Position numbers and translations under genes: made by a program
Notes under the pieces: model-generated
Told to the model about the DNA's origin: nothing
Seen by the model: the letters and a program-made list of their open reading frames with translations, nothing else
Databases searched by the model: none
Assembly (NCBI RefSeq): GCF_963675165.1
Contig: NC_087384.1
Location: 2,678,315 to 2,742,314, forward strand
Length of the DNA: 64,000 bases
Reading direction: 5' to 3'
Source: Halichondria panicea
Taxonomy: Eukaryota
Shown: positions 42,601-45,600 of the stretch, one piece after another
Position numbering within the stretch: position 1 is the stretch's first letter
Layout: every line of letters starts with the position of its first letter

Positions 42601-45600
42601 AAATTTAGTATGATATCATAGGAATAGCAAAGACATTTAATATATAAAAGGCCACATGCAAAGTCCTCTGCATGATCAGAGTCCTCTAATCAGAGCATGC
42701 CAAGAAAAAAGTCAGGTGGCTCTGGAAGGACCTGCTCCAGGTGTGGCTACACTAAGAACCCCAGCGGTTATTGCCCAACCTGCTACCAGTTGAAGAAAGC
42801 CAGCAGCTCAAGTTGTACAGCTACAACTGGACAAAGATGCTCCAAGTGTGGCCACACCAAAAACCCCAGCGGTTATTGCCCAACCTGCTACCAGTTGAAG
42901 AAAGCCAGTAGCTCAAGTTGTACAGCTACAAGAGCTTTAGCCACAGCTACAACTGGACAAATATGTTCCAAGTGTGGCCACACCAAGAATCCAAGCGGTT
43001 ATTGCCCAACCTGCTACCAGTTGAAGAAAACCAGCAGCTCAAGCTGTATAGCTACATGCATGACAGCTGTAGCCACAGCTACAACTGGACAAACATGCTC
43101 CACGTGTGGCCACACCAAGAATCCCAGCGGCTACTGTCCAACCTGCTACCAGATAAAAAAACAAGATGAGAGACCCATTACTTCGACCGCAACAAACAGC
43201 TTTGTGAGCTTGATTGATGGGGGGCTGCTAGGGGTGCACGATGAATCAGGGTACTACGAAAGAGAGAAGATGGTGCACGGGGCTTCAGTAACAAGCCCAA
43301 CCCGCTCAACTGAAGAGTACTCTACTACACCACGGAGGAGAGCAGACGAGTCCGGATATATCAGCGATACAGATGGTGATTCACTGGCACCCTCAAGAGA
43401 GATGACAGCAAGCCCTGTTAGGAAGACAGCACCAACATCAGCGATCACATTGAGAGCCTCATCAAGTCCAGTGTTGTCGATGACTACACAAGTTCCACAC
43501 TTCGTAAGTACTATACATGCATGTAGGGAGGATGTACATATACATTCTGTATCATTAATGCAACCACAGCCAAATCTGAAATCCTAATTTGAATTATTGT
43601 AGCTGGTGTCCAGTCCGGTGTCGATGAATAAAAGCACACAAGTTCCACACTTCGTAAGTACATGTACTATACATGCATGTAGGGAGGATGTACATACACA
43701 TTCTGTATCATTAATGTAACCACAGCCAAATCTGATATCCTGATTGAATTATACAATTCTTTGTAGCTGGTTGACAGTGGCCTACAAATAGAATCGACTA
43801 CCCTCAAGAGTGCTTTGCCTACAACCTCCAACAGTGCCGCAACACCAAAAGCAACTACATCAACAGTACACCAAGCTACTGTAATCAACCCGCAAACTAC
43901 ACCCAGCCCAGAAAAGCAAGCTACATCTCTCACGGTGAAACAAGCTTCTGCGTGGGACATAGACAGCGAGCTATCTCCAACGACAACAGCCAGCCCAGAA
44001 GAGCAAGCTACATCTCCCACGGTGAAACAAGGCCAAGCTTCTGCAGGTGACTTGGATAGCGAGCTAGTTCCAACGACAACAGCCAGCCCAGCTAAATCTC
44101 CCACGGTGAAACAAAACCAAGCTTCTGCAGGTGACTTGGACAGCGAGCTAGTTCCAAATACCCTGGCTTCTACACCACCTACGGTTTCCCCGGCTATCAC
44201 TTTAACACTACTCTCTGAACAAAGTGGAGACTGGAACTACTTTAGCAAGCGTATGATTCAAACAATGCCCAAGGCCACTATTCAAGAAATATACAAGATA
44301 TACAATGAGGGGTTGATCGAGAGATACAAATTTGCAAGAAAAAGAATGCTTTGCAAAAACAGTGGCAACCTAAACGAGATGATACTATTCCATGGAACAT
44401 CTAACGTCTCACCTAGCAAAATCATCAACTCTGAATTTGGATTTGATTTTCGATACTGCACCAAAGGGCTGTGGGGAGTTGGTACATATTTTGCAATGGA
44501 CGCTAGCTACTCTAGTTCTTACAGCTATAAGCCACCCGGGCAGGGGCAGAAAGAGATGCTAGCTGCATGGGTGCTAACGGGAGAAAGCTATCGATGTGAG
44601 CCAGACGAGAAACTCAGAAGGCCTCCAGCCAAAAGTGTCGATGGAGAGGAGTACTACGACACTGTCTGTGGTCATGTGGGGGGTAGTGATGTGTACGTGG
44701 TGTATGACCACGAGAAAGCATACCCCAGGTACTTGATCAGATACACAACTGATTGACTGATGAATTGTAGTTTTTTTTCCACCATAGTCAATGTCATACA
44801 TACTTCTATTGTTCATGACATTATTATGATCTATAGTCAATGCCAATTTTGTTCATTTCTTGTTACTCTTTTGAAACAGAACAATTTAAAAACAAGTTTG
44901 CCACTTCTATGTTATGTTGCCACATTCACGCAGCACTCAAAATTAATGTTGAGCTTCTATGTACATGTACATGTACACATGAACAAACACACAAGCCATA
45001 GACAAATGATAAATGTACCTGTGCCTATCCCAGTACCGCACCCTCGCAAAAATGCGCCCACCCCTCTTTTTCTTCGAAGTTCTTGCCTTGCACAAGGGAT
45101 ATTTTGACTCAAAATACGCCCACTTAGAATGAAGTGTTTGAGCATGCGCAGTAGCTACATGTAGTTAGACTATTTAACTCTTTGCTCGACCAAGATCAGA
45201 TAAAATTATAGGTTTCTCTGTGTGGATCTGTTTGCCCTCAAAGGTGTATATATGCAGGGAACAACTAGTACTACTGTAGAGAAAGGGAACAACTAATTCA
45301 AATCTAAAACAATGTCTATCACCCAATTTTGATGACCTACAACTTTGTCCATCCTTCCTGCTGCTTATATATCACATGAGCAATGAATAGATAATGTACA
45401 TGTAAGCCAAATTTTCTTATCAGCTTTAATCATGTGCATGTATTAGTTTATTATTGTTGTTGTCAATGAAATGTTCATACCACATGTATGTATTTTGTAC
45501 GGTAACTAATCATAGCCACAAGTGTAAGCCCCAATTTGAGGCCGCGGTGGGCGTATTTTCCATTCGTGAAAATACGCCCAGTCCTCGATCTCTCAGTCCT

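Follow-up and report, generated by a model that had tools for sequence, protein, structure and literature searches.

A sponge gene nested antisense in RAB35 is predicted to join a previously undescribed zinc-finger array to a PARP12/14/15-like catalytic domain

INTRODUCTION

The clade-3 mono-ADP-ribosyltransferases (mono-ARTs) of the PARP family are modular enzymes whose N-terminal readers (CCCH zinc fingers and WWE, macro, or RRM domains) decide the targets of ADP-ribosylation, and several of them are vertebrate innate-immune effectors. Here we describe a gene from the demosponge Halichondria panicea whose product resembles PARP12, PARP7/TIPARP, and ZAP-L/PARP13 in having an N-terminal zinc-finger array, a C-terminal clade-3 PARP domain, and a catalytic triad of the H-Y-hydrophobic kind. 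The gene lies in a 64,000-nucleotide stretch of contig NC_087384.1 (assembly GCF_963675165.1, positions 2,678,315 to 2,742,314 of the forward strand), which is called the window below and on which all positions are counted. The window is eukaryotic DNA (~40% GC).

The sponge protein departs from the CCCH PARPs in several respects. Its fingers are of the C4 and not the CCCH (C-x8-C-x5-C-x3-H) type, with no detectable homology between the two; it has no WWE domain but instead a tether of ~265 aa that is acidic and predicted to be disordered; and its third triad residue is Val, whereas that of PARP12 is Ile. Its gene, moreover, is intron-poor or intronless and is nested in RAB35. In a eukaryote-wide survey of PARP architectures, Perina et al. 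(2014; PMC4245714) described two kinds of clade-3 PARP from the sponge Amphimedon, a “PARP12-like” TM-PARP and macro-domain PARP14-like proteins, and reported no C4-finger PARP. Our search of the literature on PARPs of sponges or of H. panicea turned up no account of the gene reported here, whose combination of domains is new within a well-studied family of enzymes.

RESULTS

A three-exon gene lies antisense in an intron of RAB35

Two long plus-strand open reading frames (ORFs) of 296 and 313 aa, in compatible frames, are located within positions 42697-44756. The ORFs can be joined through two introns that both have the form GTAAGT...TTGTAG and are both in phase 0 and in frame, with donors at 43504 and 43654 and acceptors ending at 43602 and 43766. 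The resulting 615-aa product is identical, residue for residue, to the RefSeq protein XP_064392533.1 (“mucin-2-like [Halichondria panicea]”); the NCBI pipeline thus arrived independently at the same three-exon model. The six coding exons of RAB35 (Table 1) were bounded by the ends of tblastn high-scoring segment pairs, with splice sites not refined. Since these exons flank the gene on the minus strand, the gene is fully intronic and antisense; it sits wholly within the 6.8-kb intron (40235-47043) that separates coding exon 3 of RAB35 from coding exon 4. An earlier reading of this DNA from its letters, referred to here as the sequence-only reading, had proposed a three-exon plus-strand gene nested antisense in a RAB35 intron, and both parts of that proposal are borne out, by the canonical splice sites and RefSeq product on the one hand and by the flanking RAB35 exons, in the window and in relatives, on the other. 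Independent H. panicea assemblies also contain the locus, with 99.3-100% identity.

A TATA-like element, TATATAAAAGG, is present at 42641-42647, ~50 nt 5' of the ATG. No AATAAA or ATTAAA was found within 1 kb 3' of the stop codon, and the region 5' of the gene could not be aligned with L004, the closest related locus. A minus-strand ORF of 177 aa (43667-44200) was considered as a gene and rejected, as it is merely the stop-free antisense of the linker repeats described below. The same RAB35 intron holds a plus-strand ORF of 116 aa (41184-41534) that by eye resembles the C-terminal portion of a reverse transcriptase from a non-LTR retrotransposon; it had no Pfam match at E ≤ 0.001. Transposon insertions might account for the length of this intron, 6.8 kb here vs. 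~2 kb in the related locus L001.

Table 1. Features of the window, with positions, strands, and supporting remarks
Feature	Position	Strand	Remarks
Coding exon 1	42697-43503	+	ATG at 42697; four zinc fingers and start of linker (aa 1-269); ORF and splice donor
Coding exon 2	43603-43653	+	51 nt, 17 aa; acceptor and donor in frame; present in RefSeq model
Coding exon 3	43767-44756	+	Remainder of linker, acidic repeats, PARP catalytic domain; stop codon 44754-44756
Zinc-finger module 1	42733-42798	+	aa 13-34; AlphaFold2 pLDDT 85-90, beta-bridge plus helix
Zinc-finger module 2	42838-42903	+	aa 48-69; motif, tandem repeat, AlphaFold2
Zinc-finger module 3	42964-43029	+	aa 90-111; motif, tandem repeat, AlphaFold2
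Zinc-finger module 4	43096-43161	+	aa 134-155; motif, tandem repeat, AlphaFold2
Linker, S/T/P-rich, acidic, predicted disordered	43162-44183	+	aa 156-425; span includes both introns
Three acidic tandem repeats, 28-31 aa	43899-44157	+	Tandem Repeats Finder: period 84 nt, 2.9 copies, 82% matches
PARP catalytic (ADP-ribosyltransferase) domain	44184-44753	+	aa 426-615; PF00644, PDB sequence matches, Foldseek
Key codons His495; Tyr527; Val595	44391-44393; 44487-44489; 44691-44693	+	Codon positions
Host gene RAB35	39501-50212	-	tblastn with human RAB35, 74-94% identity per exon
RAB35 coding exons (six)	50212-50159, 49895-49839, 47169-47044, 40234-40112, 40002-39865, ~39665-39501	-	
Single-exon ORF, 376 aa	5978-7108	+	N-terminal ubiquitin-like, C-terminal IBR (half-RING) domain
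Third hydrophobic ORF	9673-10686	+	Near the tandem pair
Tandem paralogous ORFs, 334 and 360 aa	16694-17698, 18418-19500	-	Both start MLADMLNT; multi-pass membrane-like by eye
TRIM-like single-exon ORF, 692 aa	20323-22401	-	RING, B-box, NHL repeats
UQ_con (E2) exon	37539-38009	+	Pfam
TRIM-like single-exon ORF, 642 aa	62013-63941	-	B-box, filamin, NHL repeats

Related loci carry the fusion as a single reading frame

We compared six versions of the locus: the window, L004, L005/6/7, L001, L002/3, and L008. The gene is antisense between RAB35 exons 3 and 4 in all six, with RAB35 exons flanking it in L001, L002, L004, L005, and L008, and exon 3 alone visible in L003. In three of the loci, all of them from further sponge-derived assemblies, a single uninterrupted ORF encodes both the fingers and the PARP domain. 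That of L001 (541 aa) has four fingers and a further, degenerate one ahead of the PARP domain; that of L002 (540 aa, on a contig labeled “sponge metagenome”) has a single finger and PARP; and in that of L008 (685 aa) a single finger is followed by about nine linker repeats of 20 aa and the PARP domain. RAB35 exons on either side of the gene, in the opposite orientation, show these three contigs to be genomic, and the continuous finger-linker-PARP ORFs therefore place the fusion proposed in the sequence-only reading beyond any dependence on splicing. Finger number varies among the locus versions (1, 3, 4, or 4+1), and in L001 the 1.63-kb coding sequence nearly fills the ~2.15-kb RAB35 intron.

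These data also bear on whether the locus might consist of two separate genes, or be an annotation artifact, with a finger ORF and a PARP ORF that are never joined. Prokaryote-style gene callers do split the locus into the 296-aa and 313-aa ORFs in several metagenome assemblies. We reject this explanation, to which we attach next to no probability, given the continuous ORFs at three related loci, a RefSeq model that joins the exons identically, and canonical, in-frame splice sites that are kept in L004 although the interior of the intron there is full of insertions and deletions.

To quantify constraint, Nei-Gojobori ratios of nonsynonymous to synonymous substitution rates (dN/dS) were calculated between the window and L004, for which dS is ~0.25. 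The finger region had a ratio of 0.14 and the PARP domain one of 0.27, which reflects purifying selection on both folded parts, whereas the ratio of 0.47 for the linker indicates relaxed constraint.

L004 is without exon 2, as well as without one finger and one of the acidic repeats. The end of exon 1 and intron 1 are tandemly duplicated at 43486-43766 (~150 bp, ~91% identity), and this duplication is the source of the 51-nt exon 2 and of intron 2. Independent H. panicea specimens share it (L012 and L013, 99.3-99.7% identity), but L004 does not. More broadly, the orthologue is intronless in L001, L002, and L008 and has one or two introns in the window, L004, and L005. Either introns were gained in the Halichondria lineage or they were lost more than once, and an intronless antisense gene within an intron would fit an origin by retroposition. 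A viral origin was also considered; it is unsupported, no relative having been found among IMG/VR viral contigs.

L005 (JAHZIO010003575.1) comes from a sponge metagenome of specimen P_S3, labeled Halichondria panicea (JAHZIO01; bioRxiv 10.1101/2021.12.21.473556), and its PARP domain is ~70% identical to that of the window. Another specimen, P_S1 (JAHZIM01), carries the window-type locus at 99.3%. The divergence of L005 may be due either to a cryptic or misidentified species or to a second RAB35/PARP locus.

The N-terminal modules fall outside described finger families

Exon 1 encodes four C-x2-C-x9-C-x2-C cores, as the sequence-only reading had noted, at aa 13-29, 48-64, 90-106, and 134-150. 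Each core is part of a module of ~22 aa that starts C-S-[RKT]-C-G-[YH] and ends [LI]-K-K. The spacers between modules are S/T/A-rich, and the underlying DNA is tandemly repeated, at periods of 105 and 126 nt (89-94% matches). The finger region contains 21 Lys/Arg and no Asp/Glu, for a net charge of +21. Alignment of 19 modules yielded 7 invariant and 7 near-invariant columns and the signature C-x2-C-x4-N-x4-C-x2-C, with four Cys ligands and no conserved His; Trp is missing from 18 of the 19. When this alignment was given to AlphaFold2, the model (predicted local distance difference test score [pLDDT] 83.8) consisted of a beta-bridge hairpin and a helix that starts at the second CxxC, and a hairpin plus helix was likewise obtained for all four modules in the full-length model (pLDDT 84-90 over the two models). 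As modeled, each finger consists of a hairpin that forms the zinc knuckle and, after it, a short basic helix, and the array has a beads-on-a-string appearance. The finger is kept across all six locus versions at the low dN/dS given above, so the pattern goes beyond chance.

The sequence-only reading had likened these modules to RanBP2/NZF-type zinc ribbons. They do share with that family (PF00641) a small ~25-aa C4 module, two CxxC knuckles, an inter-knuckle Asn, and the frequent occurrence of tandem arrays. However, the RanBP2/NZF pattern is W-x-C-x2-C-x3-N-x6-C-x2-C, whereas the sponge finger has x9 instead of x10 between its knuckles and no Trp before the first Cys, and its second knuckle is predicted to open a helix rather than a second hairpin. 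Isolated modules gave no Pfam match to PF00641 or to the A20 family (PF01754) even at E ≤ 10, and the whole protein likewise gave none to PF00641. As a control we used five RanBP2/NZF and five A20 fingers of equal length, confirmed as to family by the identical Pfam search; these reached 1e-6 to 1e-14 (RanBP2/NZF, 1.5e-13 to 7e-6; A20, 4e-14 to 2e-6). The hhalign probability of the sponge finger was 3.2% against the RanBP2 control alignment and 5.5% against that of A20, and the NZF finger of HOIL-1L superposed on the finger model with a template modeling (TM) score of 0.27. These results do not support the RanBP2/NZF label.

We also suspected a shortened A20 finger from the local motif CG[FY]..NP...G.C..CY, and the module is modeled, like A20, as a knuckle followed by a helix. 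The hhalign alignment fell into this register (CG..NP..G.C..CY, 42% identity over 19 columns, with a two-residue deletion) but was not significant. The spacing is two residues shorter than that of A20 (C-x2-4-C-x11-C-x2-C), for which there was no hidden Markov model match, and the aromatic pair through which A20 fingers contact ubiquitin is not conserved in the sponge finger. The A20 connection is retained as a lead and not as a result.

Weak resemblances were confined to small zinc-binding folds. Sub-threshold Pfam matches were to generic zinc-ribbon, rubredoxin, and L32 families only (among them PF01783, PF07191, and PF21349), at E = 0.003-0.03 and below the gathering cut-offs. The finger profile retrieved from PDB sequences only single-knuckle “CSKCG” matches (best E = 0.006, bL32), and a Foldseek search of the PDB with the finger model gave nothing at E < 1, the best hit being bL32m (TM 0.69, root-mean-square deviation 1.4 Å over 28 columns, non-significant at E = 1.7). 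The KNPSGY loop, the YQ[IL]KK helix, and the protein context of the sponge finger are unrelated to those of bL32 and the generic ribbons.

Word-indexed searches found close relatives only, several of which were traced to sponge-derived assemblies. We then searched 1.84 billion representative proteins with the finger profile and no word index. Five proteins matched at E < 1e-10, all of them exon-1 fragments of the same gene family, and two of the five could be followed back to sponge-associated assemblies in which RAB35 exons flank the gene; six further weak matches were to apparently unrelated Cys-repeat proteins. To judge from these searches, the finger is an orphan that is so far known solely from this gene family in sponge-derived assemblies.

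What the array binds can be approached from two directions. Small tandem C4 fingers are a common design for polyubiquitin binding, and A20 fingers have the knuckle-plus-helix form that our model predicts; the fingers could accordingly be NZF/RanBP2-like or shortened A20-like ubiquitin binders that couple polyubiquitin recognition to mono-ADP-ribosylation, for example of ubiquitin itself or of ubiquitylated substrates, and the A20 register found by hhalign counts in favor of this even at its probability of just 5.5%. We consider ubiquitin binding unlikely. Genuine fingers of equal length were readily recognized in the Pfam search that left the sponge modules unmatched, the hhalign probabilities of 3-5%, the x9 spacing, and the poor superposition of the HOIL-1L finger all speak against it, and the modules have neither the Trp typical of RanBP2 nor the Thr-Phe dipeptide typical of NZF. 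An array with 21 positive charges and no acidic residue, furthermore, suits a polyanion better than it suits ubiquitin. That the array is tandem, variable in copy number, and basic throughout points to avidity-based binding of a polyanion.

The C-terminal domain is a PARP domain with an H-Y-V triad

The C-terminal domain scored 67.8 bits against PF00644 (cut-off 26.7; E = 1.2e-18). Searching the PDB by sequence gave 47 PARP sequences at E < 1, headed by PARP12 (2pqf; E = 2e-22, ~30% identity) with PARP15 (1e-20) and PARP14 (6e-20) almost as similar, followed by PARP10 (4e-11), tankyrase (6e-10), and ZAP (6e-9). AlphaFold2 modeled aa 425-615 at pLDDT >90, and Foldseek matched this model to PARP12/14/15 (E ~1e-15, target TM 0.83), with PARP12 again best at TM 0.83. 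By every testable criterion, the domain belongs to clade 3 (PARP12/14/15-like) of the PARP family, and the sequence-only reading, which had named a PARP-type domain, is supported in this.

The residues of the NAD+ pocket are also as anticipated there, with His495 in LFHGTS and Tyr527 in GTYFA; both motifs are kept in all relatives. In the HMMER alignment to PARP12, SDVYVVYD lies opposite PSIFVIFE and Val595 opposite the triad Ile, so that the triad reads H-Y-V and would be of the mono-ART type, with a hydrophobic residue replacing the catalytic Glu as had been suggested. We take the PARP1 segment YNEYIVYD to be in the same register, which puts Val595 at the position of Glu988; an automatic MAFFT alignment with PARP1 gap-shifted Val595, and the ungapped register was used instead. 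The H-Y-V triad is kept in the related proteins P0001 and P0002 and in other relatives. The C-terminal 190 aa are modeled as a full PARP fold whose NAD+ pocket is intact and in which Val595 takes the place of the poly-ART glutamate.

It can be argued that such a domain is a catalytically dead scaffold like those of ZAP/PARP13 and PARP9, and that the protein is an adaptor acting through its fingers and linker. Val is not known to occur at the third triad position in the characterized active human PARPs, and the inactive ZAP domain is among the PDB matches. Inactivity is nonetheless improbable in our view: ZAP is without the triad His, whereas His495, Tyr527, and the LFHGTS and GTYFA motifs are intact in all relatives; Val is isosteric with the Ile/Leu of the active enzymes PARP10/12/14/15; the best matches are active mono-ARTs; and the dN/dS of 0.27 reflects purifying selection on the domain.

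A Pfam search of the 615-aa protein detected nothing besides the PARP domain: there was no macro, RRM, WWE, KH, or UIM domain, and no CCCH finger even at E ≤ 10. The same tool did detect WWE in a sponge paralogue, P0003, which has the architecture RRM, WWE, PARP and is 43% identical in the catalytic domain. The protein therefore shares catalytic similarity with PARP14 and PARP15 but none of their macro, RRM, WWE, KH, and UIM domains, and with CCCH fingers and WWE both tested and absent, it is not in the CCCH-PARP subfamily. The sequence-only reading could not place the fusion in a known family, and neither can we: the finger is without a Pfam or PDB match, and the combination does not appear in the PARP architecture survey.

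A disordered, repeat-bearing linker separates the two parts

The linker is 40% Ser/Thr/Pro with a net charge of -10, and AlphaFold2 gave a pLDDT of ~30 over aa 159-423 (~265 aa), which indicates predicted disorder. The sequence-only reading counted three acidic repeats of ~35 aa in this region. The number holds, but the repeats are 28-31 aa long (84-nt period); L004 has two copies only.

Two motifs were noticed in the linker. One, [DE]-S-G-Y-[IV]-[ST]-x(1-3)-[DE][DE]-x-[LI] (43345-43390, aa 217-231), is kept in P0001, P0004, P0006, and P0007 and is weak or absent in P0002; it is conserved in most relatives despite the fast evolution of the linker and by eye resembles the beta-TrCP phosphodegron DSGxxS. 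The other, V-x-L-x-DGR-x3-V-YERSNG-x2-YY-x3-GKE-x-T-x-RSNQK, extends over ~35 aa and adjoins the last finger (~43195-43270, aa 167-190). It is strong in the one-finger orthologues (P0002, aa 40-80; L008, 4500-4620) and degenerate in H. panicea, where AlphaFold2 left it unfolded.

The composition of the linker raises the question of whether the RefSeq name “mucin-2-like” is right in spirit and the gene encodes a secreted or surface mucin-like glycoprotein. This automatic name was presumably triggered by the Ser/Thr/Pro content of 33-40% and by the tandem repeats midway along the sequence. We reject a mucin-like nature as extremely improbable. By eye, the N-terminus is polar and basic, unlike a signal peptide, and the protein has no hydrophobic segment; the Pfam search revealed no VWD, C8, TIL, cystine-knot, or other mucin domain; and the folded parts, a zinc-finger array and an NAD+-using PARP domain, are intracellular features. 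The name is misleading for this 615-aa product.

Other genes in the window

The surrounding window is rich in ubiquitin-system genes, with two TRIM-like ORFs and a UQ_con exon, and there is also a single-exon ORF with ubiquitin-like and IBR domains (Table 1). The two tandem paralogous ORFs and the third hydrophobic ORF near them had no Pfam match.

DISCUSSION

We propose that this locus is a functional protein-coding gene of H. panicea, antisense in a RAB35 intron, that encodes an intracellular clade-3 (PARP12/14/15-like) mono-ART equipped with a finger array for targeting, and we put the probability of this at roughly 0.6. Such an enzyme would transfer single ADP-ribose units. Targeting would fall to the finger array, which would act multivalently, with an avidity that rises with the number of fingers (1 to 5 in relatives), and would bind a polyanionic polymer, most likely RNA, with poly(ADP-ribose) (PAR) or DNA as second candidates. 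Binding would bring the tethered catalytic domain to the bound complexes, and these, or the enzyme itself, would then be mono-ADP-ribosylated. The protein as a whole may thus work like the CCCH-finger PARPs (PARP12, PARP7, and ZAP-L), although its finger is unrelated to theirs and restricted to sponges, and WWE is missing. Any part in stress or antiviral responses, at which the sequence-only reading hinted, would be a guess made purely by analogy.

Several observations weigh against this proposal or one of its parts. The public contigs that contain the exon-3 ORF (Logan, ENA, and NCBI) are all genomic and collinear with the window, intron 2 included. The draft assembly of L004 (GCA_022075345.1) has a 2-bp insertion, GAGAAAGCGCATACC, at ~5510 near the 3' end of the gene, which shifts the last ~15 codons of the PARP domain; a window-like C-terminal sequence is restored once the insertion is removed, and it may be either an assembly error or a real frameshift. 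L009-L011 (GCA_008849205.1, SRR11301532/3) have a PARP exon that is 77% identical to exon 3 of the window, with neither a finger exon nor a RAB35 exon in the 3 kb available upstream, which may mean a longer intron, loss of exon 1, or a dispersed paralogue. No solved structure and no Pfam family matches the finger. Polyanion binding, which we still regard as the most likely function of the array, is argued solely from charge, tandem arrangement, and analogy. Catalysis, in turn, is deduced from conserved residues, and no characterized human PARP is known to have an H-Y-V triad.

A broader and more speculative view, to which we give a low probability, would join these elements. The ~22-aa CSKCG...[IL]KK module might be a previously unrecognized, sponge-restricted class of finger that senses polymeric nucleic acid or PAR, and the gene might be an independent, convergent Porifera counterpart to the “zinc-finger sensor plus mono-ART effector” scheme by which vertebrate ZAP, PARP12, and PARP7 act in antiviral defense. 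Rapid tandem duplication could then tune both finger copy number (1 to 5) and the linker repeats, and expression of the gene could be coupled to, or interfere with, that of RAB35, whose intron the gene almost fills in some species.

The label “mucin-2-like” hides this protein from name-based catalogs of sponge PARPs or immune genes. Clade-3 PARPs owe their targeting to N-terminal modules, and an early-branching animal lineage appears to have built its own version with a finger unrelated to anything found in Pfam, the PDB, or 1.84 billion representative proteins. Should the finger bind neither RNA nor PAR, the gene would be a lineage-specific curiosity; if it does bind one of them, it would provide a new compact reader domain and a convergent case of sensor-effector design.

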